Source: a virus (lineage: Duplodnaviria > Caudoviricetes). Taken from it: a stretch of DNA of 31,395 bases. The position numbers were made by a program, and so were the translations under genes. Position 1 is the stretch's first letter. The number at the start of each line of letters is the position of its first letter. The stretch is from IMG/VR virus record IMGVR_UViG_3300045424_000079, positions 1-31,395 of that record, one strand, 5' to 3'. Of the stretch, positions 2,640 through 25,981 are shown one piece after another. The notes beneath the pieces are model-generated. The model was not told where the DNA came from and did no database searches. It saw only the letters and a list, made by a program, of their open reading frames with translations.

Positions 2640-3417
2640 CGTAGCCTTAATTCAAACAGCAAGCGGCCTAGAAAGACTAATGGCAGGCTCAGCCCCAGGA
2701 ATTCTCAGAGACAGTACTGTGGCACAAATATCTGCATTCCTATATTACGAAGCAGCAGTAATATCTAAATTAACTACAAACGAATCATTTAAGAATTTGT
2801 TTAAAACAACTATCTTTAATCAGATAGAAAAAGATTTTGGGCTATACATGGATTCACAGGCAAGAACAAAGCCTAGATCATTACACCATGTTTATGAATG
2901 GAATAAAACAGGCACACCGTCCTCTAGACTATTTAAACTTTATACAATTGAAACAGACGGACTTTCATTTAGAATTAACTATAACTTTAAGCCATCAGTT
3001 TCATCCGTACCAACTAAAAATAAAAAACAAAAGAAAAAATATGTATTTGCAAACAAGGCAGACGTGATGGAAGCTGGAATGCCCATAGTAATCCGCCCAA
3101 GGTCCGCTGAGCGACTTGTATTCGAGATGGATGGTGAAACAGTCTTTATGCCCAAAGGCACGTCAGTGACCGTTAAGAAGCCTGGTGGAGCCCAAGCCTC
3201 ACACCAGTTTGCATTGTCGTATGGAAGATTTTTTGGAGGTCAATTAGTTAATGCTTCGATGAAATCATCTGGGCTACAAAGAATATTTAATTCAAAAATA
3301 GCAAAGGCGCTTCATGTTCCAATGAATATTAAAAAGGTGCAATATAGCTTCACCCCTGGTAAAATAAGGGTACAGGCAGACGCATCATTACATGCAGCAT
3401 TTGGAGGCTCACTATGA
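2629..3417 (+). CDS. Putative neck/tail-completion protein
   Basis: ORF track starts at 2575. TTG at 2629 after GGAGAATCAGGA is the more likely start. Function from synteny only. Confidence 0.5.
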   Translation: MDSSVALIQTASGLERLMAGSAPGILRDSTVAQISAFLYYEAAVISKLTTNESFKNLFKTTIFNQIEKDFGLYMDSQARTKPRSLHHVYEWNKTGTPSSRLFKLYTIETDGLSFRINYNFKPSVSSVPTKNKKQKKKYVFANKADVMEAGMPIVIRPRSAERLVFEMDGETVFMPKGTSVTVKKPGGAQASHQFALSYGRFFGGQLVNASMKSSGLQRIFNSKIAKALHVPMNIKKVQYSFTPGKIRVQADASLHAAFGGSL

Positions 3418-3923
3418 CCGTAGATTATAAAGTAGACGCAATGTTTGAGCTCCGTAAATTTTTATGGAAAGAATTAAAAGCGGCTGGTATATTTGATGCC
3501 TACGATTATTATTCAGATAACCTGGGTACAGAAATTATACCTATTATCCCAGTACAGCAATCCCCAGAAATGGATCAATTTTTAAATGGCAAGAAGCATA
3601 TTGTCTATGACAAGATAGGACTTTCATTTGAAGACATCTGGCTATTGGCCTGCGAGAAAATTCTTTTTACCATATATTCGACAGATGTCACAGAAATCTA
3701 TGAAATAAGAAACCTCATGATGGACCTATTCAGAAGAATGGACGAATCGGCCCAAGATGTAAATAACTCAATTGGGCCAAGTAAACTAAAATTCCATAGT
3801 ATTCATGTTATAGAAACATCACCCATAGAGCCCTCCCTAGAATTAAAGGGCTTCATGTCAACAGATGTGATACTAGAGGCCAAATATTCCAGGGTAACCG
3901 ATAAGGCTGGAAGATACCTATAA
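3414..3923 (+). CDS. Putative tail terminator protein
   Basis: 169 aa, ATGA overlap with the upstream gene, immediately before the major tail protein. Confidence 0.6.
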   Translation: MTVDYKVDAMFELRKFLWKELKAAGIFDAYDYYSDNLGTEIIPIIPVQQSPEMDQFLNGKKHIVYDKIGLSFEDIWLLACEKILFTIYSTDVTEIYEIRNLMMDLFRRMDESAQDVNNSIGPSKLKFHSIHVIETSPIEPSLELKGFMSTDVILEAKYSRVTDKAGRYL

Positions 3924-5514: not shown

Positions 5515-8500
5515 ATGGCAGATAATATAATAACGACCAATATTACCGCCCACGCAGACTTCACGAGCTTAAGAGCTCAACTAGCTGCGGTCACTGCCCA
5601 ACTCATAAAACTGCAAGAAACAACAGCGGGAACAAACGCAAAGCTAGCAAATCAAATTGCTGTAATGAACAAGTCGTTTGCAACAACGCTGACATCAACA
5701 GGACAGTTCTCGCAACACTTTGTATCCCTATCATCAGACGTAGACAAGTTCGGCAAGAACTTAGATAGAGGCCGTCTCAAGCTCAACGATTATTATAATG
5801 CTTGGAACGGCCATACAAGGAAAACAAGTACTTTAATTAGAGACCTGGCCAAGCAGCAAGTAATGCTTCAGCAAGCCATAGTTCAGCCTGTAGGCAAAAA
5901 TGCACAAGGACAAATGCAATATAATGTTATGGTTGCAAAAGGTCTTGATGAAATAAAGAATAAGATGGCTATTGCTAGACAAGAAGCTGCAATAATGAAC
6001 AAGGTAATGCTTGACGGATCAAACCAGCTTATTAACTGGGGTAAGAATACACAGTGGGCTGGTCGCCAACTAACAGTAGGATTAACAGTTCCTTTAGTTA
6101 TGTTTGGTTCGGCAGCACAAAAAGCATTTAGAGAAGCAGACGCAGAATTAGTAAGACTAACAAAAGTTTATGGTGGACTCGCAGCAACTTCATCTGCAGA
6201 CTTAGCACGAGTAAGAAAAGATGTCACCGACACAGCAAGAGAAATTGCTAGCTCTTATGGAGTTGCTTATAAAGAAACAATTGCGCTTGCCGCAGACTTA
6301 GCAGCAACTGGACAGCAAGGCAACGACTTGATAGCAGCAACACAACAAACAACAAGACTTGCAGTGCTTGGTGAAGTTGACAGACAAGATGCAATGAAAG
6401 CAACTCTTGCTATTCAAAATGCATTTAAGCAAAGTACAGACGAGCTCGCACAATCTATTGACTTCCTAAACGCAGTTGAAAACCAGACATCAACAAACCT
6501 TGCAGATTTAACTGAAGCTATTCCAAAAGCAGGACCCGTAATTAAATCTTTAGGTGGAGATGTAAAAGACTTAGCTCTTTATTTAACTGCGATGAAAGAA
6601 GGTGGAGTAAATGCTGCTGAAGGCGCAAACGCAATCAAATCAGCAATGGCATCACTTATTAATCCAACAAAAGTTGCAACAGAACAATTTGCAGGATTCG
6701 GAATTGATTTAAAAGGTATTGTGAATGACAATGCTGGAGACTTAACTGCAACAATATTAGAATTACAAGGAGCTCTAGATAAACTTAATCCGTTAGATAA
6801 GTCTAGAGCAATTGAGCAGCTATTTGGAAAATTCCAGTTTGCAAGAATGTCGGCCTTATTTGAAAACCTAGGAAAGTCTGGTTCACAGACACTTCAAGTT
6901 ATGGATTTAATGAAGGCAAGCGTGACAGACCTTGCAGCAATTTCAGAGCGAGAATTAAAGATGATGACAGAGTCAGCATCTGGGCAATTTAAAAGAGCCT
7001 GGGCCGCAGTTCAAGCAGATCTAGCTGCTGCTGGTGAGCAATTTTTAAGAATAAGTACAACGGTGTTAAAAGTTGTTGACTCAATAATAAGATTCTTCCA
7101 AAAGCTTCCTGAGCCAGTTAAAACATTATTGAATGTTTTAGGAGGATTTACAGCAATTGCTGGTCCTCTTATTATGTTGGCTGGTGTCATGGGCAACTTT
7201 ATTGGCTATGTCATCAAGGGAATATTTCATTTAAGACAACTAGCAAAAGGTGGACAAGGCTTCAAGTTACTAACACCAGAAATTATAGCCGCAGATGCAG
7301 CCGCTAAAGGTCTTGCAACATCATTCTACTCAGATACAGAAGCAACAATTGTTTTATCAAATGCGGTTAATACCCTAGCTGAATCATTTAAGAATTTAGA
7401 AATAAAAGCCAATGCAGCAAAAGTTTCCGTGCAGCCAGCAGTGTCAACAGTAGCAGGCGGAGTAATTATGGCAGCAGGGCCTGCTGGAAGAGTTGTAGAT
7501 AAAGATAACCCATTAGTTGGTAGACCATATTCAAGAGACATGTCGCATTTAATCCCATCTGGAAATCCACAAGATGGAACAATATTTGGAACTGTCCCAG
7601 GAGCAAAGCCAGTAAATATAAGAGTCGGTAGAAACCCACAGGCTTATATGGATGCCGATCTTCCAAAGATACCTGGACTGACATCAATAGGAGGAACATC
7701 CACAGGAATTGTTGCAGCAGAAGCTGCAAAATGGCATGCAATGACAGCAGCCATCTCCATGCAGTCAGAGGCAGAGCTTAAACTATTAAAGGCAGAAGTA
7801 ATGGCAACAGGAACCGTTACATCAAGCCTATCCGATTCCTATCAAGCATTATTGCCAGAGTTTAGCCAAATAACAGATCTTGCAGCAAAAGAAACTGCAG
7901 CAATCGTGCAGCAAGTTCAAGCAAGCAAGATAACAGTAGAACAAGCTAGAGCAAGAATTATTTCATTAAATGCAACGGTAGAAGCAATGCTTGCAGAAAC
8001 AACAAGACTAACTGCAGCAGGCATGGGCAGAACAGCAAATCTAACAACAGTCCCACTAACTTCTCAGCCAGTAGTAGATCCAGTTACAGGAAAATCTAAT
8101 ATGAAAGAAATGTTTCATAAAGGACCTACAAAAGCAATGGTTGATAGAATTGCAAGAGCTCTTGGCGGAGTAAGAACATCTGGTGCGGGATACAATATTG
8201 AAACAACAAAGCCAAAGTTTGCAAAGGGAGGCTTTGTTCCAGGAACTGGTAACACAGACACATATCACACTACAGCAGAGCCTGGCTCATTTGTAATTAA
8301 TAAAGCTGCAACCGAAAAACATCTTCCATTAATAACAAATATACTTGGAGGAAAATCTTATTATGCACAAGAAGGCGGACAGGTCCCAGTTGTATTAACC
8401 CCTGGAGAAGCCGTTATTCCAGCCAGCTTTGCTAAAAGGAATATGCCTTTAATGTATGAGTTAAATGGCGGACCTGGAAATACATCTGGAAGCGGAATGC

Positions 8501-11500
8501 ATGAAACTGGCGGAGAAACAGCTTTTGAAAGAAGTCACGTTTCCGAAGCATCAGCCGCTGACATTAAAAGAGTGCGGGCAACAAGAGGCTATGCTAATTC
8601 TGTAAGTGTCGGTAGAGGAATTCCAATTTGGATGAGCAGAGATGCAAATCAAGAAACTCGATCAGTTGGAAAGGGAATGACAGGCCCACAATTAGCAAAA
8701 GAATTTAGAAAAGCAATTGCAGCAGGAAGACACCCATTTGAACCATGGATGACTGCAGCTCAAGGTTTAGGCGGAGATCCAAGAAATAATACTCAATTTA
8801 ATAAAGTATTTAATGAAATGCTTAAAAATCTTGAAAAAGACACTAGAGTATTTGGTGGTAAAAATGGAGTAATGACATTTGAAAAATGGTTTGAAAAAGA
8901 AGTAATTGGATCGAAATCCTTTAAAGATATAAGGGTTGGAGATAGATCATTCAAATCAATATTTAATTCAGTTCTACAGCCTATGGGGCCAAGAGATGGA
9001 AAGCCTATTGCTGCATTAGAAACACTTGTTAAATCCAGAACTGGTTTAACTACAATTGAAAATTCAAAACTGGCTGGTCTTGCAAAAGGAATGCTAGGAA
9101 CATTTAGTGGAAGCTCATTTAACGCAAGCAGACAAAGACTTGCAATAATGATGTCAAGAGCATTTCTTAAAAGAAATTCAGGCGGCTCTATTCCTGGGGG
9201 AACTGTAGAAAGAGGAAGATACGGATATGGCAAGCCTTTCTTTGTTGGCATGCCAAGATCTATTAAACAAGTTGAAGCACAAAGAGCGGCAAGAACAGCA
9301 ATGGAAAGAGCAAGCACTGCTGTATCGGAATCAAGATTTGCAAAGAAGCCAGTAACTCAATATGGAGAACTATTGTCTCCGACCACAGGAAGAAGTTTTC
9401 CTGTAGCAGGAGTTGGGGGCCTATACATGAAGGGCGACGAAAAGGTATTCGTTAAGCCAGTGTTAGATGAAAGAGCAGCTTTGGCAGAAATGAGAGCAAC
9501 AGAAATTGCTCGTGATGTTCATGGCCTACATGCTCCAAAACAAAAAATTGTTGTTATGCAAGACCCTACTGATCCAACTGGTAAAAGAAAGCTATTGGCA
9601 CTTGAATCAAAATTTGATCCAAGCCTAGCAGCTACAGATGCAAAATTTACAACAGATCAATACTTTAGACAATTAGTTGCATCAGCATTACGTGGGGACA
9701 AAGATTTAGGAAAAGGCAATTTGTCTGGAAATGTTCTTTCAGATGTAGGCCCAGCTGGAGTATTCTCAGCAGCATCTGGGCTTAGAGGATACGCATCCAT
9801 GATGCCTTCAGTAAAAGAGCAGGCCTATATAAATCTATTAGGAAGAAAAGGCAGCGGGGCTAAGAAGTTCTTTGCTGAGTCAACCCACCAGATACCAAAA
9901 GGAATGACAGCCGATGAATATCATAATCGTATGCTTAAAGAAATTGAGAGTGCTTTACCAAAGCTTAAGCAAACGGTTTCAAGATTTGATTTAAACCCAG
10001 AAGAAAAAGTTGTTTATGAAGCAATGATTAAAAGACTTTCTGATGCAAGAGGTGTTAACTGGAAAGAGCTTCATGGAATTCACTCTGGCTTACAAATTTC
10101 ACCAGAAAAACAAATGACACCAGCGGCCATAGCAAAGATGGTTGCAGCAGATGAACTAAAGCGTAGACAGTCTGGTCACTCAGCAAGTCTTTCAGACAAT
10201 GCCTTTAAGACTGATGCAAATGGATTCTGGCTTGGTGGCATGGTTCCAGATGCATCTGGTGGAGATAAGGCCTTAATGCAAGGAGATATGTTCCAGCATG
10301 ATGTATTAAGACCAGGGTTTAGATTTGGTGGATTGCTTGAAGCATTAACAAAAGGCAAAGCAATGCATAAAATTGGTGCAGGATTTGGAAAAGATTCTAC
10401 TGGCGGATGGGGAGTAACATCCTTACAAATAGGAATGGCTGAAAAGCTTTTTGGGTCTACTGGACTAACAAAGAGAACACAAAAAATTCTTTATGATAAA
10501 TTTGCAGCGCAGCTTGCTAAAGAAATGCCATATGGATATTCAAAGAATGCACAAGGGCATTTAATAAAAGCATTAGAGCCAGACGTTATGGACTCTGTAA
10601 TAAGATCAGCAGCCTCATCTACCCTGTCAGCACCAGAGGGAAGAAAAGTGCTTTCTACAATAGATAGAGAAATTCTTAGAAAGAAGTTTGCAAACTGGGA
10701 GTCTAAAAAAGATACACCTCTAACAGAAACTTTGAAGCAGTTAGTATTTGGAATAGAAAAAAGAGAAATGGGCGGACCAGTTAATGCTGGGCAGCCATAC
10801 ATTGTTGGAGAAAAAGGACCAGAGCTATTTGTTCCAAGAAATGCTGGTGGGATAGTTCCAAACGGATATGCAACTGGTGGCAAAATTATAAATGGCTATA
10901 ATGCTGGTGGCATTGTAGCAATGCTAAAACAATTAGCACTAATCATAGGTTTAAGCGAAGGAGCCAAGTTTGCTGGCAATAAGGTTGGTGGAACTCCTGG
11001 AGACATGTTGTCTATGGTTGGTCAATTCTTACCTTTCTTAATAATGGGTAACGCAATGCCAAAGGGTGGTGGCAAAGGAATTGGAAACATGTTCCCTAAA
11101 GCTACAAAGCCTATTGGAGCAGCTAAAGCAGTTGAAGGTGTTTTTGTTAACGGAAAGCCTTTAATGAATGCAACAAAGTATGGAACACAGCTAGATAAAC
11201 TAACTAAAAGCTCTAATATTTTTTCTAAAACATTAGGAATGTCATTAAAGATGTTTACAAGATTCAATCTTGCTCTTGGAACACTTGCAGTTGGTGGGCA
11301 GTACGCATGGAAAAAATGGCAACAGCATAACGAGGCTCTAAGATTAAATGCATTAGGATATGGAATGACAGCTGAAGCTGCCTCAAAAGCAGGACTTAAG
11401 TTTACAAACTTTAATGATAAAATTAAAGAAGCAATCAACAATGCAAAAGCATTAAGAGAAAAAAATACTCTTCTCTATGAAAGCATGAAGGGGTCTGGCA

Positions 11501-14500
11501 CTCCATTAAAAATTACAATTGAAGAATACAAGAAATTAAAAAAAGAAGTTAAAGAAAATTATTCTGATCAAGTAGCTCTTATTAATCAAACAGGCAACAA
11601 CTCAGAAAAACAAAAAGCTTTAGCAATAAGGCTCAAAGAACAATTAATTGCTATGGGAATGTCTGCTGAAGATGCTGCTAAAAAGATATACACAATGTAT
11701 GCAGCCTCAGACTTTGCTCCCAATGCAGCCGCGTGGACAGTTAGATCACAAGGATTCAGAGATATTAAAGATACTGCCTCAGCTGCAGCTCAAGCAATAG
11801 AAGATTTAACTACTGCAATGGAAACTAATCGTGATGCAACTGAGCAGGCCAACCAGCTAAATACAGCAATGATGGCTTTATCTACGGACGTAGAATCTAG
11901 ACAAGCAAAAGCATTAAAAGAAGCACGAAAGCAAGCCAATAAAGATGGCACTTATCTTTCAACGGGCGATGAAAAACAAATAATGCTTGATCAAGAGCAA
12001 GCGGCTATTGATGCAATTAATGCTAAAGTAGAAAATCAAGTATATTTGACTAAAGAAGTTGTAGACGAAATGGCCAAGATAGATCCAGCCATTAGACAAA
12101 TTGTTAATGAGCAGGATACCGCTTTGTCTTTATGGCAAAAAACAAGAATTCAAGTTAAGGGATATACTGGAGATCTTAGATCGCTTAATGCCCAACAGAC
12201 AAACGACTTATACAAATTACAAATAGCGTTAGGCAAATCAATAGAGGCTGCAAACAGAGCACCTGGGGGAGCGCTAGAAAAGCAGTATAAAGAATTAGAT
12301 AAAAATAAAAAACTACAAGCCGCTTATGAAAAAGCAGCAAGAGGACAGTCAGTTGCACAGCAAATATCAGATAGAGATAAGATAGCATCTCTGCAAAAAC
12401 AAATAGATGCCAATAATAAATTAACCGAGTCAAGACTTAAGGCATTGGATGCTGCAAAGCAAGAGGGGGATATTGCTAGAGAAATTGCAAAGAAGCAGGC
12501 AGAGTATGATGCAGCGCTTGCAACTGGCAACATAGCTGGAGCACAACAAGCAAGCCTAGATATTCAGGGTTACCAAAGCGACCTTCAATATAATGCTCAA
12601 AAGAAATCTCTTGAAGATTCAAACATACTTCAGAACCTACCACTACAAAAATTAATTGAAGCAATTCAAGGAAAGCAACAAGGTATATCTGATAAGGCAG
12701 CACTTGCGTCCGAAAAATTAGGAGATCTTTCTACAACAATTACTAAACAAGAAACTGCAATTAGCGATGTAAATAGCGCAATGCTAAACTGGGAGATTGA
12801 ATTATTAAAACAACCAGAAGCAGAAAGAGCAAAATGGAAAGCAAGCAAGCAATCTGAAACAATGCTTGCTGCTGTTGCAGATGCTGCAAAAGCGGCAGGA
12901 ATTAAACTTAACGGATTAAAGGATCTTGATTTTGCCAAGGGTCTTGTTGAGGGAATTGATAAGAAGCTTGGAGCAGTTAGCACAATAGGTATTGATGGAA
13001 ATGTTACTATAGTCCTTGCAAATGGGCAGCAGTTAAATATAGGTAATGGACGAGGCAATGGAACAAAAGATACTCCATTTGATTTAGGAAAAGTTGGAGA
13101 AGGAACAAATACTATATCTGGTGCAACCGTAGCAAACTGGGGACATTCGGTACTAGATAAGGGACCACTTGGAATTAGTCAACAGCTCAAGGGGCTTGCA
13201 CATGAAAAAGGTATTCTTCCTGGACAGTTCTTCTCAGTAACAGATAAAGATGGGAAAGTTTCTGTCTTTAAAATGCGAGATGATGGAGGCTTGACTAGAC
13301 AAAATAATCCATACAAAAAAGCAGATGGTGGACATATTGTAGGAGCTGGAACAGCGACATCTGACTCTATCCCAGCATATCTTTCAAATGGTGAATATGT
13401 AATTAAAGCAGATTCTGTAAAGAAATATGGAGTAGACCATTTCGATGCACTAAATGCTGGTAAGTATGCACAAGGCGGTTTAATAAATTCAGGCCCTCAA
13501 TCTGAGCACAAGAGCTCATTTGGAAATGGGTCTACAAATGTAAATGTAAATATGCAGGGCGGAAAGTTAATGGGCCCAATAGAGGCATGGCAAGAAGCTA
13601 ATAAACAAGTTGTTAAAATTGAAGTTCCTCCAATTACCGCTAATTTTGCTACCAACTCTTATGTGTTGAATAAAGAACAAAGACTAGAGCTTCAAAAGAT
13701 TGCTTCGGATCTTCTTAAGCATAAACTAGACTCACTAGTTGTTGAAGGACATACAGATTCAGTAGGAAAAGGAAAAGACAATAAGATCCTTTCACAAAAT
13801 AGAGCAAAGGCAATTGCAGAGTACCTGTCAAAATTTGTTCCTGGCACAGGATTCATCCCAGTAGGATATGGAGAGTATAGACCACTTGTTCCAAATTCAA
13901 ATGCTGAAAATAAGGCTAAGAACAGAAGAGCAGAACTAATTCTCCCAGATAAATACAAAACAATTTATCCAGAGTACAAGCCTGAAAAACATGAGTACAT
14001 GTTAAGTAAGGGCCGCATTGAAGGCAGCGGAGCGATCCTTAGCACAAATGGCCAGCTAATTGGCACAAATGGAACACTGACTAGTGGCGGATCAATGCAG
14101 TCAGCCATAAACTGGGGCAAGCTATTTAAGAAAGTCAAGAAAGCTATTGGCTTCCATACAGGCGGACCAGTAGGTCATCGTCACGGAAGAAACTTACCAA
14201 AGACTAAACCATCTCCTACACCATCTCCTACAAACAGGTATATGACAGTAGAGGAACACCGCCAGCTGCAGGGAATGAATCTTGAAAACAATGGAAGCGC
14301 TTCTAAGCCAAATGGCAATGCTTCAGGTATGCAGCCTGGGGATAAATGGAATAATAGACATATAACACAATCAGTTGGAAAATGGCTCATTAATAGCATG
14401 AATCCAGTAGCTCCAATTACTAATATGTTGCCAAAAAACATAAGAGATTCTATGGCAAATCCAGCGTACTCAGTATTTGGGCAGCCATTTGAAGAAATAA

Positions 14501-17500
14501 TAGCAGGAAGCCCAACCAAGGGAGACTGGTTAAATGCAGCCTTAACTTTTATTCCATTTGGAAAAATTGGATCAGGGATAAAAGCAATCCCTAAAACACT
14601 AAAAACAATTAAGCAAATTCCTACAGCAATTAAAGTTGGAAGTAAGCTAAAAGCTGGTAATTTTGATGACCTAATAAATATAGGAAAGTCTACAGCAGGA
14701 AAGTCAAGGCCGTCTATAATGAAGGCTGCTGATGGATCTGTACATTACATGAAGATTATGCAGGATGTAATGGAAGGTGCATTTGAAGTAACTGGTTCCA
14801 CAATAGCTAAAAGATTTAAAATGCCAAGTACTGACAACATCTTGGGCACTTGGAAGAACTTGTCTGTCATATTAAGTAAAGATTTTGCATCAAAGGGAAT
14901 GAAAACGCTAGAAGATGCTGGTGCAATGTTGCCACACGGATTCCTTGACATGGATTGGCTTAAAGCTAATGCTTCAATGAAAAGCTTTGGAAAGATGAGA
15001 GCAGTCTCATCCATACTAGGGCACGGAGACATGCATCCAGGCAACCTACTGCTTAAGGGCAAAAAAACTCTTGGAGCATTTGACTGGGGAATTATAGATA
15101 ATTTGACTAACCCAGCTGAAACAGCGTGGAAAGCGGGCAGCACCCTAGTTGGAAAACAAGCTTCTCAATTTACTAAAGGCTTCTCTTCTGTAAGAAAGTC
15201 AATAGCTAAGCAAGGCCCAGAGAAATTCATAGATGATATTTTAACTAAGAGCGGAATTACTGACGAAGGACAGTTGAAGGTTCTACGTATAGTACTTGAA
15301 AGAAATGTAAAGTCTTTATTAGATTTGAATATTCCTGGCAGATTCCATAAGGGCGGAGCAGTAGGACATAGACATGGAAGATCTCTTCCAAAAAAGAAAA
15401 ATTGGTTTCAAAACTATGTCTCTGATTTAACTCAAAGCCAAGATGAAGCACAAAAACTTCTTTCTAAATCTCCACTTACTTCATGGATGAGTGCAGATCC
15501 TCTTGGAGCAAAATCTATTTTTAGAAATATTGCTGGTCAGGGTAGGAGTGGTGATACTTTAAACTCAATACTTTTCCCTTTAAACTTCCTTGGAATGGGG
15601 TCTGCTAAAGGTGCGGTAGTTAAGCCAGTGGGTAGTATGCTAGGAAAAATTACAAAGCCGCTAACCAGTATGCTATCAAGAATAAAAGATTCAAGGTCTG
15701 TTGTAAAAATAAAGTATCCATTAGATGTTGCTGCACCGTCTGCAAAAATGCTAGGATCAGCAGCACTAAGAGCCGCACAACAGACACCTCAAGGCATAAC
15801 AAATCTTTTAAGATCTGGATTATGGAAGACATTTGGTGCAACAAAATTAGGACAAAAAGCGCTATACAAAATACCTAAAATTGCTGGGTTTAGACCCTAC
15901 AGTCCAATGGGCATTGGATCTGTATTTAAAAATACATCTGATTATGTTAGAAGAACTGGTAAGAGTTTTTTTGATGATATTACAAATCGACCACATTCTG
16001 CCCCATCTCGTACTGGTGCTCCAACTGGAGCCAAGGCTTGGGATGATTGGGCAGACTATAGCAAGATTGGAAAAACAAATCCGCAAGAAGCTTTTGGTGA
16101 GCTTTTTGGGCTACTATCTAATTTAACTAAATCAGTAGCCCTAAAACCTATCGTTAAAATTGGCACCAAGGCAAAATCAAAAATAACTTCTAGTATTGAT
16201 GCTAAAAGAAACTCATTAAAATTCTTTAAACAATTTATAGTTCCATCAAAATCTTCATTTAATCCAAAACAAGCAATATCAAATTTCCTGTATAGATACA
16301 CTCCATACGGATCAATGAAAGCTAAGACATTATTAAAGACAGGAGAAAGAGAAGGAAGTTGGTCCCCTTCAGCAGTTGATCCAAGCTCAGGACCAGAAAT
16401 GTTTGAAACACTTAAACAACTAGCAATGCGCCCATTTTATCATGGTGGTATTATGCCAGAAACGCTTATAAATAGATCAACACCTGGTGTTCTAGGAAAT
16501 CCAGTAGATGACCTATTTGCAGCTAAGCATAGCATGTTTGGAAATCTATTTGATTTTGATTTGTTCACTACAGCTTCAAAAGGAATGTCTGCTTCATATT
16601 CAAAAACTAAAAATACTGTAAATGTATTTAGTGAAGAAGCAGGAAACATATATGAAATGTTTTTCAAAAAACTTGCTGGAAAGAGGACTCTAGATTTACG
16701 TGGCGGAGAAAAATCAATTTGGTCTCAAAACAAAAGAGCTTATGCCGCTCTAGAAGCGTTTTTAGCTAAAGCTCATGGAATTGAAACTGCAAGATTGATG
16801 TTAGCAGGAGAAAGAATTCCTGGCAAGGCATTCAGCTCACTTGGTAGAGCAAGAGACAGTTTCTTGCAGGGAGAAAATCTAAGGCTGGCCTTTACTAAGC
16901 TAGGTCCAAGAGGATTTAAATACATTATTGATACTCTTGTACACGAAGGCGGCAGAAATACAAATTCTGTATCGCATCCAGTTATAGCATCACTAGCTCC
17001 TCAAAGAGTGGTTAGTGGATTTAAAAAAATATTAGATGGAACAGATCTAGGATTTTTTGATTCTTTAAATTTAAATAAAGTAAACTTTTCTAGAGTTACA
17101 TCTGAATTAGAAAAAACACTAACAGAAATTGTTACAAGAAGTGTTGATCAAAAAGACAAGCTTGGTAAAGTTCTGCCATTCTTAAAGGCAGGGCATTTTG
17201 CAAACGGTGGGATAGCTGGATCTAGATACAATATACCTAAATTTGAAACTGGAATAAATAGCGTACCAGCCGACATGCTTGCAATGCTTCATAAGAATGA
17301 AGCCGTTGTTCCTGCAAATATGAACCCCTTTAATCCAAACGCTAATAATGCTACAATGGGTGGAGCAACATATAATATTACAAATAATATTAATGGATTC
17401 GATGGGGACATAAATCAATTGTCAAATATAGTAACACAAAAGACTATTACAGCAATAAAGACTCTTGATTCCCGCAATTCTAAAATGACTGGTTCATCAA

Positions 17501-17520
17501 TGACCGTAGGAGTTAAATAA
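5515..17520 (+). CDS. Giant tape measure protein (4001 aa) with multiple embedded cargo domains
   Basis: Follows the frameshifted chaperone. N-terminal TP901-like TMP core (WAGRQLTVGLTVP...FLNAVENQT), hydrophobic segments and Ala-rich coiled coils. Internal kinase, OmpA-like and ART-like motifs. Confidence 0.92.
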   Translation: MADNIITTNITAHADFTSLRAQLAAVTAQLIKLQETTAGTNAKLANQIAVMNKSFATTLTSTGQFSQHFVSLSSDVDKFGKNLDRGRLKLNDYYNAWNGHTRKTSTLIRDLAKQQVMLQQAIVQPVGKNAQGQMQYNVMVAKGLDEIKNKMAIARQEAAIMNKVMLDGSNQLINWGKNTQWAGRQLTVGLTVPLVMFGSAAQKAFREADAELVRLTKVYGGLAATSSADLARVRKDVTDTAREIASSYGVAYKETIALAADLAATGQQGNDLIAATQQTTRLAVLGEVDRQDAMKATLAIQNAFKQSTDELAQSIDFLNAVENQTSTNLADLTEAIPKAGPVIKSLGGDVKDLALYLTAMKEGGVNAAEGANAIKSAMASLINPTKVATEQFAGFGIDLKGIVNDNAGDLTATILELQGALDKLNPLDKSRAIEQLFGKFQFARMSALFENLGKSGSQTLQVMDLMKASVTDLAAISERELKMMTESASGQFKRAWAAVQADLAAAGEQFLRISTTVLKVVDSIIRFFQKLPEPVKTLLNVLGGFTAIAGPLIMLAGVMGNFIGYVIKGIFHLRQLAKGGQGFKLLTPEIIAADAAAKGLATSFYSDTEATIVLSNAVNTLAESFKNLEIKANAAKVSVQPAVSTVAGGVIMAAGPAGRVVDKDNPLVGRPYSRDMSHLIPSGNPQDGTIFGTVPGAKPVNIRVGRNPQAYMDADLPKIPGLTSIGGTSTGIVAAEAAKWHAMTAAISMQSEAELKLLKAEVMATGTVTSSLSDSYQALLPEFSQITDLAAKETAAIVQQVQASKITVEQARARIISLNATVEAMLAETTRLTAAGMGRTANLTTVPLTSQPVVDPVTGKSNMKEMFHKGPTKAMVDRIARALGGVRTSGAGYNIETTKPKFAKGGFVPGTGNTDTYHTTAEPGSFVINKAATEKHLPLITNILGGKSYYAQEGGQVPVVLTPGEAVIPASFAKRNMPLMYELNGGPGNTSGSGMHETGGETAFERSHVSEASAADIKRVRATRGYANSVSVGRGIPIWMSRDANQETRSVGKGMTGPQLAKEFRKAIAAGRHPFEPWMTAAQGLGGDPRNNTQFNKVFNEMLKNLEKDTRVFGGKNGVMTFEKWFEKEVIGSKSFKDIRVGDRSFKSIFNSVLQPMGPRDGKPIAALETLVKSRTGLTTIENSKLAGLAKGMLGTFSGSSFNASRQRLAIMMSRAFLKRNSGGSIPGGTVERGRYGYGKPFFVGMPRSIKQVEAQRAARTAMERASTAVSESRFAKKPVTQYGELLSPTTGRSFPVAGVGGLYMKGDEKVFVKPVLDERAALAEMRATEIARDVHGLHAPKQKIVVMQDPTDPTGKRKLLALESKFDPSLAATDAKFTTDQYFRQLVASALRGDKDLGKGNLSGNVLSDVGPAGVFSAASGLRGYASMMPSVKEQAYINLLGRKGSGAKKFFAESTHQIPKGMTADEYHNRMLKEIESALPKLKQTVSRFDLNPEEKVVYEAMIKRLSDARGVNWKELHGIHSGLQISPEKQMTPAAIAKMVAADELKRRQSGHSASLSDNAFKTDANGFWLGGMVPDASGGDKALMQGDMFQHDVLRPGFRFGGLLEALTKGKAMHKIGAGFGKDSTGGWGVTSLQIGMAEKLFGSTGLTKRTQKILYDKFAAQLAKEMPYGYSKNAQGHLIKALEPDVMDSVIRSAASSTLSAPEGRKVLSTIDREILRKKFANWESKKDTPLTETLKQLVFGIEKREMGGPVNAGQPYIVGEKGPELFVPRNAGGIVPNGYATGGKIINGYNAGGIVAMLKQLALIIGLSEGAKFAGNKVGGTPGDMLSMVGQFLPFLIMGNAMPKGGGKGIGNMFPKATKPIGAAKAVEGVFVNGKPLMNATKYGTQLDKLTKSSNIFSKTLGMSLKMFTRFNLALGTLAVGGQYAWKKWQQHNEALRLNALGYGMTAEAASKAGLKFTNFNDKIKEAINNAKALREKNTLLYESMKGSGTPLKITIEEYKKLKKEVKENYSDQVALINQTGNNSEKQKALAIRLKEQLIAMGMSAEDAAKKIYTMYAASDFAPNAAAWTVRSQGFRDIKDTASAAAQAIEDLTTAMETNRDATEQANQLNTAMMALSTDVESRQAKALKEARKQANKDGTYLSTGDEKQIMLDQEQAAIDAINAKVENQVYLTKEVVDEMAKIDPAIRQIVNEQDTALSLWQKTRIQVKGYTGDLRSLNAQQTNDLYKLQIALGKSIEAANRAPGGALEKQYKELDKNKKLQAAYEKAARGQSVAQQISDRDKIASLQKQIDANNKLTESRLKALDAAKQEGDIAREIAKKQAEYDAALATGNIAGAQQASLDIQGYQSDLQYNAQKKSLEDSNILQNLPLQKLIEAIQGKQQGISDKAALASEKLGDLSTTITKQETAISDVNSAMLNWEIELLKQPEAERAKWKASKQSETMLAAVADAAKAAGIKLNGLKDLDFAKGLVEGIDKKLGAVSTIGIDGNVTIVLANGQQLNIGNGRGNGTKDTPFDLGKVGEGTNTISGATVANWGHSVLDKGPLGISQQLKGLAHEKGILPGQFFSVTDKDGKVSVFKMRDDGGLTRQNNPYKKADGGHIVGAGTATSDSIPAYLSNGEYVIKADSVKKYGVDHFDALNAGKYAQGGLINSGPQSEHKSSFGNGSTNVNVNMQGGKLMGPIEAWQEANKQVVKIEVPPITANFATNSYVLNKEQRLELQKIASDLLKHKLDSLVVEGHTDSVGKGKDNKILSQNRAKAIAEYLSKFVPGTGFIPVGYGEYRPLVPNSNAENKAKNRRAELILPDKYKTIYPEYKPEKHEYMLSKGRIEGSGAILSTNGQLIGTNGTLTSGGSMQSAINWGKLFKKVKKAIGFHTGGPVGHRHGRNLPKTKPSPTPSPTNRYMTVEEHRQLQGMNLENNGSASKPNGNASGMQPGDKWNNRHITQSVGKWLINSMNPVAPITNMLPKNIRDSMANPAYSVFGQPFEEIIAGSPTKGDWLNAALTFIPFGKIGSGIKAIPKTLKTIKQIPTAIKVGSKLKAGNFDDLINIGKSTAGKSRPSIMKAADGSVHYMKIMQDVMEGAFEVTGSTIAKRFKMPSTDNILGTWKNLSVILSKDFASKGMKTLEDAGAMLPHGFLDMDWLKANASMKSFGKMRAVSSILGHGDMHPGNLLLKGKKTLGAFDWGIIDNLTNPAETAWKAGSTLVGKQASQFTKGFSSVRKSIAKQGPEKFIDDILTKSGITDEGQLKVLRIVLERNVKSLLDLNIPGRFHKGGAVGHRHGRSLPKKKNWFQNYVSDLTQSQDEAQKLLSKSPLTSWMSADPLGAKSIFRNIAGQGRSGDTLNSILFPLNFLGMGSAKGAVVKPVGSMLGKITKPLTSMLSRIKDSRSVVKIKYPLDVAAPSAKMLGSAALRAAQQTPQGITNLLRSGLWKTFGATKLGQKALYKIPKIAGFRPYSPMGIGSVFKNTSDYVRRTGKSFFDDITNRPHSAPSRTGAPTGAKAWDDWADYSKIGKTNPQEAFGELFGLLSNLTKSVALKPIVKIGTKAKSKITSSIDAKRNSLKFFKQFIVPSKSSFNPKQAISNFLYRYTPYGSMKAKTLLKTGEREGSWSPSAVDPSSGPEMFETLKQLAMRPFYHGGIMPETLINRSTPGVLGNPVDDLFAAKHSMFGNLFDFDLFTTASKGMSASYSKTKNTVNVFSEEAGNIYEMFFKKLAGKRTLDLRGGEKSIWSQNKRAYAALEAFLAKAHGIETARLMLAGERIPGKAFSSLGRARDSFLQGENLRLAFTKLGPRGFKYIIDTLVHEGGRNTNSVSHPVIASLAPQRVVSGFKKILDGTDLGFFDSLNLNKVNFSRVTSELEKTLTEIVTRSVDQKDKLGKVLPFLKAGHFANGGIAGSRYNIPKFETGINSVPADMLAMLHKNEAVVPANMNPFNPNANNATMGGATYNITNNINGFDGDINQLSNIVTQKTITAIKTLDSRNSKMTGSSMTVGVK
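9367..10100 (+). other. HipA/PI3-4-kinase-like domain 1 inside TMP
   Basis: Gly loop GVGGLY, VFVK (K 9454), alphaC Glu (9487), LALESKF, catalytic-like DKDLGKGN (9697-9720), DVG (9742). Confidence 0.6.
13633..13944 (+). other. OmpA-like C-terminal (peptidoglycan-binding) domain inside TMP
   Basis: Full signature F..NS..L...VEGHTDSVG...N..LS.NRA.AI..YL...GYGE.RP..PN......NRRAEL. Confidence 0.92.
14152..15393 (+). repeat. Two copies of a 17-codon cassette header FHxGGxVGHRHGRxLPK (14152-14202 and 15343-15393)
   Basis: 14/17 aa and 38/51 nt identical by direct comparison. Confidence 0.9.
14680..15330 (+). other. HipA/PI3-4-kinase-like domain 2 inside TMP
   Basis: GKSRP, HYMK (K 14752), Glu (14785), ILSKDF, canonical DMHPGN (15028-15045), DWG (15082). 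Confidence 0.8.
16435..17013 (+). other. ADP-ribosyltransferase-like domain (ART-PolyVal-like) inside TMP
   Basis: FYHG...LFTTASKGMSASYS...GNIYE...TLDL...DTLVHEGG...HPVIASLAP, matching the YHG / YTT....A..Y / G.IY / D.I.H.GG..H.V...P pattern. Confidence 0.55.
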
Positions 17521-18209
17521 TGGCAGTTCTAGCATTACCAATTGGGGCCCTAATATCATTTGAAAATACTGCAGTTACTCCTGTAGTTTGGCAGGCACTG
17601 AGTGAGCACAATAGAGCAAGTGCCACCCTAGATGTACAAAGAATTGAAAAAACTCAAAGAATGTCAAATGGAACATTAAGAAAGATATTCATTACTGATA
17701 AGCAAATGCTATCTGTAAGCTGGTCAGCACTACCAAGCTATTCTAGTATGACAGTAGATGGCAACTGGGGAGCAATGGACATTAAAGATTTTTATACTGG
17801 CGCATCGGGTCAGGGCACAGTCAAGGTAAAGATTTCACCAAATGGATCGGCTGAAAAAGAAAAAACAATGATAATGTCATTTACCTCATGTAGTTTTACG
17901 GTAACAAAAAGAAATGTAAGGATTGGTGGAGTGTTTAAAAATTCAAGCATAACTGCCATATCGTATGCGGCTGGAGTAACAACATATACAGGTAAAAATA
18001 GTTTTGCGGTTGGAAATAAAGTTAAGGTATCAGGAGCGACATTTGCAGCGTATAATGGAGTATTTACTGTAACAGCAGCAACATCAACATCATTTACTGT
18101 TGCAGGAACTATAGCTGGAACACCTGCCTCATCTACAGCATCCGCCATCACAGTTCTGCCAGATGCACAAGAATTCTGGGATGTATCTATAGCACTGGAA
18201 GAAGTTTAA
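17520..18209 (+). CDS. Distal tail (Dit-like) protein with inserted beta-rich domain
   Basis: First gene after the TMP (TAATG overlap). RMSNGTLRK...SVSWSALP and terminal WDVSIALEEV are Dit-like. Thr/Ala-rich insert at about 17922-18167. Confidence 0.65.
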   Translation: MAVLALPIGALISFENTAVTPVVWQALSEHNRASATLDVQRIEKTQRMSNGTLRKIFITDKQMLSVSWSALPSYSSMTVDGNWGAMDIKDFYTGASGQGTVKVKISPNGSAEKEKTMIMSFTSCSFTVTKRNVRIGGVFKNSSITAISYAAGVTTYTGKNSFAVGNKVKVSGATFAAYNGVFTVTAATSTSFTVAGTIAGTPASSTASAITVLPDAQEFWDVSIALEEV

Positions 18210-23014: not shown

Positions 23015-25981
23015 ATGAGACCATATGATATTGACGGTGGTGGAGGCATACCAGCAGATCTAGAGATAGATCCAGCTGCTGCCGCAGCCTCTGCTTCTTC
23101 AACATCAGCAAACTCATATACAAAAGTTGTAAAGATGGTGCCTGTTGTTGGAAAGACATATAAGTTTTGGTTTACATACCTATATGAAGATCCAGAAACC
23201 AAACAAGTAACGGAAAGTGCAAACTCTCCTATTTTTTCAACCTCATTTACAATTCCCAACGGCACCAAACCAGTAAAGAATTTAGTTTTAACTTCTGGCA
23301 TCAAATCATATGGAGTTAAGTTTGACGTTGATCCAGACAGCGTACAGACTGATATTATAATATACGAGAGTCTTACTGGAGCATTTACTGGCGAAGAGTA
23401 CATAGTTTATACTGGAACCTCAACAAATATAACTGTGCAGGTGGATAGCTTTGCTCCAAGATGGGTAAAGGTTACAGTCAGAGATAACTGGCTAGATGCA
23501 AATAGATCTTCTGTTACAGCTGGCCCAGTCAATATTTTAGCAAATGACCCAGATACTTCAACTCCCCCAAAAGCACCAACTGGCGTTTCTGTTAGTGGAG
23601 TAATTGATCCAGAAGATAAAAGTGGATTCAGCATACAAATGGATGTTTCTTGGACCGCAAGCACTGATTCTAATACAAACGGATATGTAATAAGATGGTC
23701 TGCAAACGATCCATCAACTACTCTAAACCCATTGTGGGAATACGGTCAAGTAGACGGCAGAGCAACAAACAAATTTTCCATAACAGGCCTAACCCCCAAT
23801 ACAGTTTATTATTGGCAGGTTACAGCAAAAAGCCCTTTCAATGCAATCTCTTGGGATAAATCGGTAACTGGTCAAGTTGCTTCTGGTCAGTTTGGCCCGA
23901 TATCAGATCCAAATGCCCCAGCGGGAAACATTCAATTAAGATCTATCATATCTATTGGAGGTAAGCTGGCGGACTTATTTAAAATAGGAACTGGAATAAC
24001 GCAGTCAATTAATACATCTACAACAATAACCCCTTCATTAGTTTCTGGAACATATAATGGAATTATTTTAGATAGATCAACAACAAACTACGGCCATAAT
24101 TATTGGTTAAACACTGGCCAGTTTAGAGTAGGAAGTGCGTCAGCATTTTTTTATTGGGATGGATCTGATGTATATACAACAGGAAAAATAAATGCAACTG
24201 GTGGATCATTTACGGGAGACGTTAGATTAAATGGCGGAACTTTATATACTGGCCCAACCCCTTTAGCTGGTGCAAGAGTTAGATTTGATAGCGCAGGTTT
24301 GTTTGGATACGACGCAACAAGTACAAGTAATACAACTGGACAAACTTTTGCATTAACGGCAGCAGACGGAAAAATTGATGCACGTCTCGGGTTTATTGGT
24401 GGATGGACAATTCAGGGCACTTCTCAAACAGTAGGAACTATTTCAAAAAATGGCACCATACTTGGTAGCGATGGAAGCATAGTTTTAGGAGACACGACAG
24501 GAACGCTTCCATCAATTGTTAAATTAAGCTCTACCGATCCAACATATAGAATTTGGGTGGGAAGCCAATTAGCAACCAATGCTAAATTTAAAGTTGGAGT
24601 AGATGGAGTTGTTTATGCAAATGGCGCAGTTATAGATGGCAACGCTTCATTTAGTGGAACTTTAACGATAGGCACAAAGTTATCTGACGGAACAACATTA
24701 GATCAAACTAGAGCAAATGCACTATCAGCTATTGGTTCGGCCAGCGCAGCAGCAGATAAAGCAGAGATAGCAAGATTAAAGGGTATTGAAGCTTATGATA
24801 AAGCAGTCGCTGCAGGCGAAAGCGCAGCAGCTGCAGCAGAAGCAGCCAGGGTTGCAAAAGAAGCAGCTGATCTTAAGATGGCCTCAGCGGACATAAATAC
24901 TGTCTTGGCTTACAACACCACAATAATTAATGGAAATAGAATTACAACTGGAACAATTGACGTGGCACGTCTAAACATTACAGGTGGAACAGCTGGAGTA
25001 AACGGATTTGTTGTAGATGGAAATGGAATCCGTGCGTATAACGCATCCACTCAAACTTTAAACATAGCGTCAGACGGAACTGTCTCTCTTGGAGATAGTA
25101 GCTTTGGCTGGACGGTGGACCGACGATACATCACATCAAGAAATATATTTACGGCAGGGTACACAAAATTAGTTTTAGATGGATATGATGGGTCTATCAC
25201 AGGTGGAAGAATTTCTGGTACATCAATTGAAGGAAATACAATCACTGGTAATACAATAACAGGCGGAACAATTATTGGAAGCAGGGTTCAAACAAGCTCA
25301 TCCACAACAAGAGTAGAGCTAAGAGACGTGGCCTCACCAGGAACAGACTCTTTAAGAGCTCTTATTTCAGGAGTTACTGTCGGGCATGTATTTGGATATG
25401 GCACTTCAACAAATGGCGGAATGGTTATGATGTCAGGGTCTACAGCAAATCCAGATACAACTTCTGGGCACGTCAGAGTGTTGCCAAACTATGCAGTGCT
25501 GGCTGGAGATAGCCTGAATTATTTTGAGGCAAATGGCACATCCAATAATATTAACTTAAGAGGGCAGACTATATATGCTGGTCCTGGAAAAATGTTTTAC
25601 AGTTTTGCAACCGTAAGTACCACAGCTCCAAACTTTAGAATTGATTCGGATGGCGGAATGTCAAGGACGTCAGGCTCCACGATTAGAATTAAAGAGGATG
25701 TTGTAGACCTACTATCACTACCAAGCTTAGACCCATCACCACTATATAGCTTGCCAGTTAGAGCTTTTAAGTTTAAAAAAGATATAATTGGTCCAGAAGA
25801 TCAGAGGTACGACAAGATGGTTCCAGGTTTTATTGCCGAAGAAGTTGCAGAAATTTATCCTGCTGGAGTAGACATAGGGGATGACGGTCTACCTGAAAAC
25901 TGGAACTTTAGAGTTATTGTTCCTGCAATGCTATCTTTAATTCAAGATTTAAATCAAAGAGTTAAAGAATTAGAAGGATAG
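23015..25981 (+). CDS. Tail fibre / receptor-binding protein with FN3 domain and C-terminal S74 intramolecular chaperone
   Basis: FN3 motif (VSWTAS..GYVIRW..ITGLTPNTVYYWQVTA, about 23564-23833), Gly-rich beta repeats, Ala-rich coil (about 24710-24890), S74-like STIRIKEDV...GFIAEEV...LIQDLNQRVKELE (25676-25981). Confidence 0.85.
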   Translation: MRPYDIDGGGGIPADLEIDPAAAAASASSTSANSYTKVVKMVPVVGKTYKFWFTYLYEDPETKQVTESANSPIFSTSFTIPNGTKPVKNLVLTSGIKSYGVKFDVDPDSVQTDIIIYESLTGAFTGEEYIVYTGTSTNITVQVDSFAPRWVKVTVRDNWLDANRSSVTAGPVNILANDPDTSTPPKAPTGVSVSGVIDPEDKSGFSIQMDVSWTASTDSNTNGYVIRWSANDPSTTLNPLWEYGQVDGRATNKFSITGLTPNTVYYWQVTAKSPFNAISWDKSVTGQVASGQFGPISDPNAPAGNIQLRSIISIGGKLADLFKIGTGITQSINTSTTITPSLVSGTYNGIILDRSTTNYGHNYWLNTGQFRVGSASAFFYWDGSDVYTTGKINATGGSFTGDVRLNGGTLYTGPTPLAGARVRFDSAGLFGYDATSTSNTTGQTFALTAADGKIDARLGFIGGWTIQGTSQTVGTISKNGTILGSDGSIVLGDTTGTLPSIVKLSSTDPTYRIWVGSQLATNAKFKVGVDGVVYANGAVIDGNASFSGTLTIGTKLSDGTTLDQTRANALSAIGSASAAADKAEIARLKGIEAYDKAVAAGESAAAAAEAARVAKEAADLKMASADINTVLAYNTTIINGNRITTGTIDVARLNITGGTAGVNGFVVDGNGIRAYNASTQTLNIASDGTVSLGDSSFGWTVDRRYITSRNIFTAGYTKLVLDGYDGSITGGRISGTSIEGNTITGNTITGGTIIGSRVQTSSSTTRVELRDVASPGTDSLRALISGVTVGHVFGYGTSTNGGMVMMSGSTANPDTTSGHVRVLPNYAVLAGDSLNYFEANGTSNNINLRGQTIYAGPGKMFYSFATVSTTAPNFRIDSDGGMSRTSGSTIRIKEDVVDLLSLPSLDPSPLYSLPVRAFKFKKDIIGPEDQRYDKMVPGFIAEEVAEIYPAGVDIGDDGLPENWNFRVIVPAMLSLIQDLNQRVKELEG

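Follow-up and report, generated by a model that had tools for sequence, protein, structure and literature searches.

What does a tailed virus gain from two tandem protein modules that open with almost the same peptide and end in unrelated enzymes? The question is raised by positions 14152 to 17196 of the virus record IMGVR_UViG_3300045424_000079, whose full stretch of 31,395 nucleotides (a 31-kb record, 24% complete) is here called the window. An earlier note on this DNA had read the two modules as toxin-like cassettes, each with a reusable membrane-translocation leader and an interchangeable payload. The modules are indeed tandem and led by a header, but they are neither separate genes nor protein starts: a single open reading frame (ORF; 5515-17520, + strand) holds both in frame, as amino acids (aa) 2880-3276 (cassette 1) and 3277-3894 (cassette 2) of a 4,001-aa tape measure protein (TMP). 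The count of two also needed revision, since a third, OmpA-like cassette (13465-14151) precedes both, and the header accounts for two of the 11 copies of a junction motif in this TMP. Our analysis favours the view, which we hold to be somewhat probable, that the modules are in-frame exchangeable cassettes occupying a C-terminal slot of a giant TMP, and that, on leaving the tail together with it, they bring into the bacterial host a kinase and a predicted ADP-ribosyltransferase (ART), which would modify proteins of the host as infection begins.

The carrier was identified from its PHROG matches, from a Pfam PhageMin_Tail/TP901 (PF10145) domain at aa 239-438 (97.4 bits against a cut-off of 33.2) and from its position between the major tail/chaperone genes and a distal tail gene, the chaperone and distal-tail labels being given by position. 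The nearest cultured TMPs are those of Streptomyces Stanwilliamsviridae (32-34% identity across the N-terminal part), in which the gene order is identical. The OmpA-like, kinase and predicted ART domains are joined in one ORF of the tail cluster, and misassembly was ruled out by a single contig from a separate study (run X5), which covers 13000-17800 unbroken with 108 differences and no gaps. The features are as follows.

5515..17520, + strand: TMP, 4,001 aa (PHROG TMP families, best E 1.7e-115; Pfam PhageMin_Tail; gene order as in the tail cluster of Streptomyces phage Wofford)
7135..7191, + strand: the TMP's own predicted membrane segment, aa 541-559 (best 19-residue Kyte-Doolittle mean, KD19, of 1.94, the sole 19-residue stretch above 1.6 in the protein)
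13318..13464, + strand: upstream boundary repeat of the cassette slot, KADGG...DSIPAYLSNGEYV (matched in 914 phage records; anchor in related TMPs)
13465..14151, + strand: cassette 0, a junction and an OmpA-like domain (aa 2711-2804; Pfam OmpA 63.8 bits, cut-off 27.2), without a hydrophobic patch
14152..14202, + strand: header 1, the junction motif with a GHRHGRNLPK extension, FHTGGPVGHRHGRNLPK (from the sequence)
14521..14571, + strand: hydrophobic patch 1, then a Lys-rich amphipathic stretch (from the sequence, a hidden Markov model (HMM) and hydropathy)
14674..15324, + strand: payload 1, predicted kinase of HipA/CtkA/PI3K fold (AlphaFold2 pLDDT 85; Foldseek CtkA, E 1.6e-6, probability 1.0)
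15343..15393, + strand: header 2, FHKGGAVGHRHGRSLPK, the swap point against the related TMP P0008 (38 of 51 bases as in header 1)
15550..15600, + strand: hydrophobic patch 2 (similarity to the related TMP P0002 begins about 20 residues after it, at aa 3382)
16414..17043, + strand: payload 2, predicted ART-fold domain (AlphaFold2 pLDDT 56; Foldseek best E 0.03; VIA best Z 7.8)
17197..17517, + strand: closing junction (FANGG), downstream boundary repeat (LHKNEAVVP) and conserved C-terminal end (from comparison with related TMPs)
17520..18209, + strand: next gene, distal-tail-like by position (1-nt overlap with the TMP stop)

Both headers stand where the earlier note had placed them. Their peptides share 15 of 19 residues (E 1e-8) and their DNA differs at 13 of 51 bases, 7 of them third codon positions, and in 16 aligned headers the Arg and Pro codons lying outside the search pattern are invariant at bases 1-2 and variable at base 3. 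Since the third positions vary while the first two are fixed, selection would act on the peptide rather than on the DNA. A matrix of the shorter junction, [FYL][ANH]xGGx[VI], found 1,068 sites in 136 distinct TMPs, whereas reversed and shuffled copies of the same proteins gave 3 each, and the upstream boundary repeat, which itself begins with the junction, was matched in 914 phage records (most of the 40 matches listed are annotated as TMP). This distribution makes FHxGG a joint common to TMPs in general, which GHRHGRNLP extends locally; the header is a His-rich lineage variant of the junction rather than a targeting signal. The search of viral DNA with GGxVGHRHG that the earlier note had proposed returned 90 viral stretches, with 20 distinct contexts outside the window in giant ORFs; among 65 distinct motif contexts on viral contigs, 22 lay in ORFs above 1,200 aa (two being the window's own), 4 were in short loci with TMP sequence and 39 were set aside by eye as off-frame. 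Cellular genomes gave 11 pattern matches in 185,579 genomes, of which the 9 translating to the motif were assessed and 2 left out; all 9 fell in Arg/Gly-rich frames unlike TMP and were judged off-frame by eye.

The 136 TMPs were collected with the header pattern, from loci found via the next gene and by a protein search on the C-terminal end (120 of 156 matches). With the slot bounded by the DSIPAxLSxGEY and LHKNEAVVP repeats and cassettes counted at 100 aa or more, the 132 anchored TMPs carried no cassette in 27 cases, one in 38, two in 48, three in 17 and four in 2; after this count five mis-anchored cassettes were removed and one was added. Iterated profiles gave 14 payload groups and 46 architectures in 106 cassette-bearing TMPs, the groups named on more than motifs read by eye being kinase, ART-A, OmpA and GNAT. 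The GHRHG header is not always followed by the same domain: it leads 42 cassettes in 37 TMPs, with eight payload types (first payloads ART-B 11, kinase 10, ART-A 5, Trp-rich 5, GNAT 4, R-S-E ART 3, OmpA 2, ART-C 1 and one unassigned). The payloads are thus interchangeable, as had been proposed, and close relatives swap cassettes. The header itself is no translocation leader, because it also heads OmpA and Trp-rich cassettes that lack the patch and because the same payloads follow plain junctions (14 of 26 cases for ART-B).

The exchange can be read from close relatives. P0008, whose core is 96% identical to that of the window TMP, follows it to the end of cassette 1, departs from it at header 2 and agrees with it again from the closing junction onwards (in 50-aa bins, 92-100% identity over aa 2691-3240, 6-32% over aa 3291-3890, then 100%). 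In P0002, identity rises from about 20% to 74-92% past aa 3382, just behind patch 2, and its own patch starts like patch 1 and ends like patch 2, while P0004 keeps header 1 and carries ART-type payloads. A junction bounds every cassette, and in these comparisons the switch from one relative to another falls either at the junction or shortly after the hydrophobic patch. In a lake metagenome (run X11) contig depth, a coarse measure, was 180-570 for cassette 1 and the C-terminus and about 4 for cassette 2. One contig of that run links 15375 to 17232, skipping cassette 2, with 33 letters on its short side. No cassette was found at the DNA level in cultured phages.

Other occupants of the slot were recorded alongside. 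The commonest payload group is an RxTxH...W domain without Pfam match (36 TMPs, e.g. L052, L098 and L099); the OmpA-like peptidoglycan-binding cassette is present in 20 TMPs of the set, and a 125-aa Trp/Gly-rich cassette in 14 (L060:8396-8776 and L054:9608-10369, in L054 as a tandem double). Some relatives show an R-S-E type ART motif, read by eye. Cassettes of 150-170 aa with leader-like or helical sequence and no assigned payload occur in L046 (aa 2877-3029), P0014, P0019 and P0090. The Wofford TMP (L113:4876-11130) has the same slot, with an HHEGG...GEYMM repeat, lysozyme-like and M23-like motifs (by eye) and an LHKNEAV repeat. Finally, P0081, P0085 and part of P0094-P0116 are 2,740-2,810-aa TMPs with one boundary repeat, an empty slot and a core about 66% identical, and this group is a set of natural cargo-free controls.

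The modules end in unrelated enzymes, as the earlier note had recognised. Payload 1 is predicted to be a kinase of the HipA/CtkA/PI3K fold with its catalytic residues intact: the model built on 13 sequences has CtkA, PI3K and actin-fragmin kinase among its Foldseek neighbours, and the catalytic K, E, DxHxxN and D of this superfamily are all present (K3080, E3091, D3172, H3174, N3177 and D3190, invariant across the 13 aligned sequences). A payload 1 profile run against 1.84 billion proteins gave 11 of 20 matches below 1e-10, and those inspected were TMPs or TMP fragments, one repetitive match being left out; in the ESM Atlas, phage clusters without names and a HipA_2 lead (14% of members) were obtained. 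Payload 2 is likely ART-like, according to its predicted structure. ART-superfamily entries dominate both of its structure searches and fill most top VIA rows, with neighbours including diphtheria toxin, ParT, Arr, an anti-CRISPR protein and a phage ejection protein. These matches are consistent with the split beta-sheet fold of the H-Y-E clade of ARTs, though weak. The best VIA neighbour is a domain of the cyanophage A4 pre-ejectosome (Z 7.8, rmsd, the root-mean-square deviation, 4.2, 156 aligned residues), for which the available text of the A4 paper names no ART domain. H3643, F3684 and Y3695 are invariant in 12 sequences, and the column of the usual catalytic Glu, as placed by alignment, holds His in 10 of the 12.

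The hydrophobic segments were also correctly located by the earlier note, as were the Lys-rich stretches behind them (20% and 14% Lys, against 9% in the whole protein), but the likeness of the two patches is weak in pairwise comparison (13/32 identity, E 0.017) and their hydrophobicity is moderate. They lie 123 and 69 residues past their headers, and the intervening sequence is unrelated. With patch HMMs built strictly, without a bridging sequence and one false decoy, the model of 8 patch-2-type segments gave patch 1 a score of 10.5 bits, while the best of 433 decoys reached 4.8. A profile-profile comparison of the two patch families scored 25.3, above all 106 decoy blocks (best 14.7), with windows set around a shared GD, which favoured the match. 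The profile similarity exceeds every decoy, although the HMM cross-test succeeds in one direction only, and the two patches are distantly related. A transmembrane helix was rejected for both, as hydropathy is below threshold (best KD19 of 1.01 for patch 1 and 1.24 for patch 2, against 1.94 for the TMP's membrane segment), and so was a glycine zipper, since tandem GxxxG is absent from both; GxxxGxxxG does occur in 10 of 17 leaders of the RxTxH family.

What is new here is a leader that tracks payload class. In non-redundant cassettes with an assigned first payload, and with a patch defined by an upstream 19-residue mean of at least 0.9, a patch was present upstream in 39 of 49 cytoplasm-type cassettes (kinase, ART or GNAT) against 1 of 10 wall-type cassettes (OmpA, CHAP-like or lysozyme-linked zincin), two Trp-rich cassettes being too short to score. 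It was also present in 16 of 17 RxTxH and 5 of 8 other zincin cassettes. The contrast persists when families are counted (8 against 3 gives p 0.006, 8 against 2 gives p 0.022) and for upstream lengths up to 150 aa. In cassette 0, the KD19 upstream of the OmpA-like domain is -0.18.

In the reading that we favour, the tail tube would hold the cassettes in unfolded form along with the remainder of the TMP, and this would be the reason why they call for no immunity protein; they would leave with the TMP at ejection and refold afterwards; some junctions may be cut, by analogy with lambda gpH and T5 pb2 near their C-termini. Payloads using ATP and NAD would have to reach the cytoplasm, and they could act on host proteins like T4 Alt or the T7 kinase (PMC5512222). 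Because the patch is tied to cytoplasm-type payloads, a membrane-crossing role of patch and basic helix is kept open: the Gly/Ala hydrophobic patch and the basic helix might help payloads to engage or cross the membrane, a suggestion that we make tentatively and rate somewhat below even, as the least certain step of the mechanism, and wall-acting payloads would do without the patch. It is more doubtful whether the TMP is an addressed injection polyprotein, in which FxxGG would be both cut and exchange site, patch and basic helix would address a cassette to the cytoplasm, and cassettes without a patch would stay at the wall. If this were true, freshwater actinophages would carry in the tail tube, with no need for immunity genes, a pre-sorted collection of exchangeable enzymes for modifying the host, several of which belong to unknown families.

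Several points weigh against these interpretations. The predicted ART structure has weak scores throughout (a pLDDT of 56, a Foldseek E of 0.03 and a Z below 8); payload 2 has no Pfam match and lacks the usual catalytic Glu, and Pfam, PDB sequence search and ESM Atlas yielded nothing usable for it. The HMM of 6 patch-1-type segments fails to pick up patch 2. The patches are under transmembrane hydrophobicity, a KD19 of 1.6 being reached in just 10 of 110 cassettes, and cytoplasm-type leaders show no glycine-zipper excess (14 seen, 18.3 expected). As for the patch statistic, both its threshold of 0.9 and the assignment of one zincin family to the wall class were chosen post hoc, the wall families compared number two or three, families share ancestry, and most payload labels behind it are motifs recognised by eye for which Pfam gives weak support or none.

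The alternative that survives best keeps the cargo array and removes the targeting role of the leader. The payloads would never part from the TMP and would pass through its channel, a route already suggested for the virion RNA polymerase of P23-45; the header and the patch would be inherited spacers used as crossover points. We regard this as possible though on the unlikely side. Crossovers do fall at the header and just behind the patch, the patches are diverse and weakly hydrophobic, and a pore-associated fused enzyme has been proposed (PMC10770324), but against it stand the headers, which differ mostly at third codon positions and so conserve the peptide rather than the DNA, and the patch, whose presence tracks payload class.

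Folded domains cannot fit the tail lumen, which counts in favour of a second alternative, namely that tail assembly removes the slot, which then either acts in the producing cell or is discarded there, without being injected. Before the head is joined, lambda gpH undergoes cleavage close to a C-terminal region rich in glycine, and perhaps half of the fragments are lost (PMC12617516). We consider this explanation improbable for the TMP studied here, since a conserved C-terminal end lies beyond the slot, that end staying in the tail tip in T5, lambda and JBD30, and since wall-acting domains (OmpA, CHAP-like and LysM), which are sensible at entry, share the slot.

It is more improbable still that the payloads are toxins against protists that eat infected bacteria or virions. 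Such a Trojan horse has been proposed for the VIP2-like ARTs of 24 freshwater phages (PMC6802176), and the fold neighbours CtkA, actin-fragmin kinase and diphtheria toxin, together with the R-S-E type motif seen by eye in some relatives, would fit it; the same folds, however, occur in bacterial and phage enzymes (ParT, Arr, an anti-CRISPR protein and a phage ejection protein), a virion holds just 3-6 TMP copies, no binding or pore domain was detected, and peptidoglycan-type domains share the slot. Lastly, we give practically no credence to a true polymorphic toxin locus with separate PT-TG-like toxins, immunity genes and orphan cassettes, although variable C-terminal enzymes behind a semi-conserved hydrophobic segment would fit it, and the parallel with polymorphic toxins in the earlier note is not supported as membership, since one ORF already contradicts it, the carrier is a tail ruler protein, PT-TG searches at E 10 found no match in a single record or in a set of 5, pre-toxin Pfam families matched 0 of 15 leaders, all of 22 loci continue directly 3' of the TMP with a distal-tail-like homolog and show no immunity gene downstream (in the window the 1-nt overlap leaves no space for one), and for ART-A, the payload searched for orphans, no second copy was found in 3 records holding one, including one complete relative (G001).

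With regard to known systems, the array would by analogy work as a polyvalent protein for which a TMP is the scaffold; its precedents are P23-45 gp96 and the TMPs that bear hydrolases. Polyvalent proteins (Iyer et al. 2017, PMC5512222) are likewise giant virion-associated polypeptides joining ART, kinase, GNAT, zincin and wall enzymes, are predicted to be injected with the DNA, and show cassette-like variation, noted for Verrucomicrobium loci. They differ in that the carrier here is a TMP ('tape measure' occurs 0 times in the main text of that paper), in that the cassettes are bounded by a defined junction, and in that the kinase keeps its C-lobe whereas theirs is described without one. Of the polyvalent-type families ART-PolyVal, MPTase and LPD, none was found in the window TMP; two relatives matched ART-PolyVal at E 0.017 and 0.18, short of the cut-off. 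The Thermus phage P23-45 gp96 (PMC10770324), a TMP-fused virion RNA polymerase, is similarly a giant TMP with a cytoplasm-acting enzyme, but that enzyme is single, fixed and N-terminal with its activity shown, in contrast to a variable C-terminal array of 0-4 cassettes read from sequence and models. Mycobacteriophage TM4 (PMC1796659), T5 pb2C (bioRxiv 2022.09.20.507954) and Wofford, with peptidoglycan-hydrolase motifs in their TMPs, also have enzyme domains in the C-terminal part of the TMP, in Wofford between the same two boundary repeats; theirs are wall enzymes, whereas ART-, kinase- and GNAT-type domains with hydrophobic leaders dominate the slot here.

PT-TG polymorphic toxins (PF14449) share the hydrophobic segment and basic linker before a variable enzyme, with exchange behind the segment, but the present cassettes have no HMM match, immunity gene or secretion domain and stand in tandem in one structural protein. 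The type VI secretion effector Tde1 has a Gly-rich hydrophobic segment proposed to move an enzyme across the cytoplasmic membrane (PMC10240207), and such a glycine-zipper segment is also reported from Burkholderia prophage TMPs in the same paper; neither window patch has the zipper. A literature search, with most subscription papers outside its coverage, found no account of this array. It is commonly assumed that siphoviruses offer little space for proteins to be injected, and a tail ruler with hypervariable kinases, ARTs, acetyltransferases and wall enzymes would, if confirmed, amount to a T4-Alt-like first strike on host defences. Should the patch be an address, the route of tail-borne proteins into the cytoplasm becomes testable. 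The slot is also a variable region worth following in lake populations, and its 14 payload groups include uncharacterised families such as RxTxH.

The source is an uncultured freshwater siphovirus whose host is probably an actinobacterium, to judge from gene content. The metagenome runs containing the stretch are from freshwater, river or lake, and an actinobacterial host is suggested because WhiB, a pointer to such hosts (PMC10202952), was found in 3 of 5 related records, including both complete ones. Elsewhere in the window, positions 23015-25981 encode a 988-aa tail-region protein with an FN3 domain and without PHROG match. A second, fixed kinase-like stretch lies mid-TMP at 9382-10059 (aa about 1290-1515); it has no Pfam kinase match, and the cassette kinase profile did not match it (probability 7%), the resemblance being at motif level, with K1314, E1325, GDKDL...N1402 and D1410 kept in at least 90% of 41 aligned TMPs.

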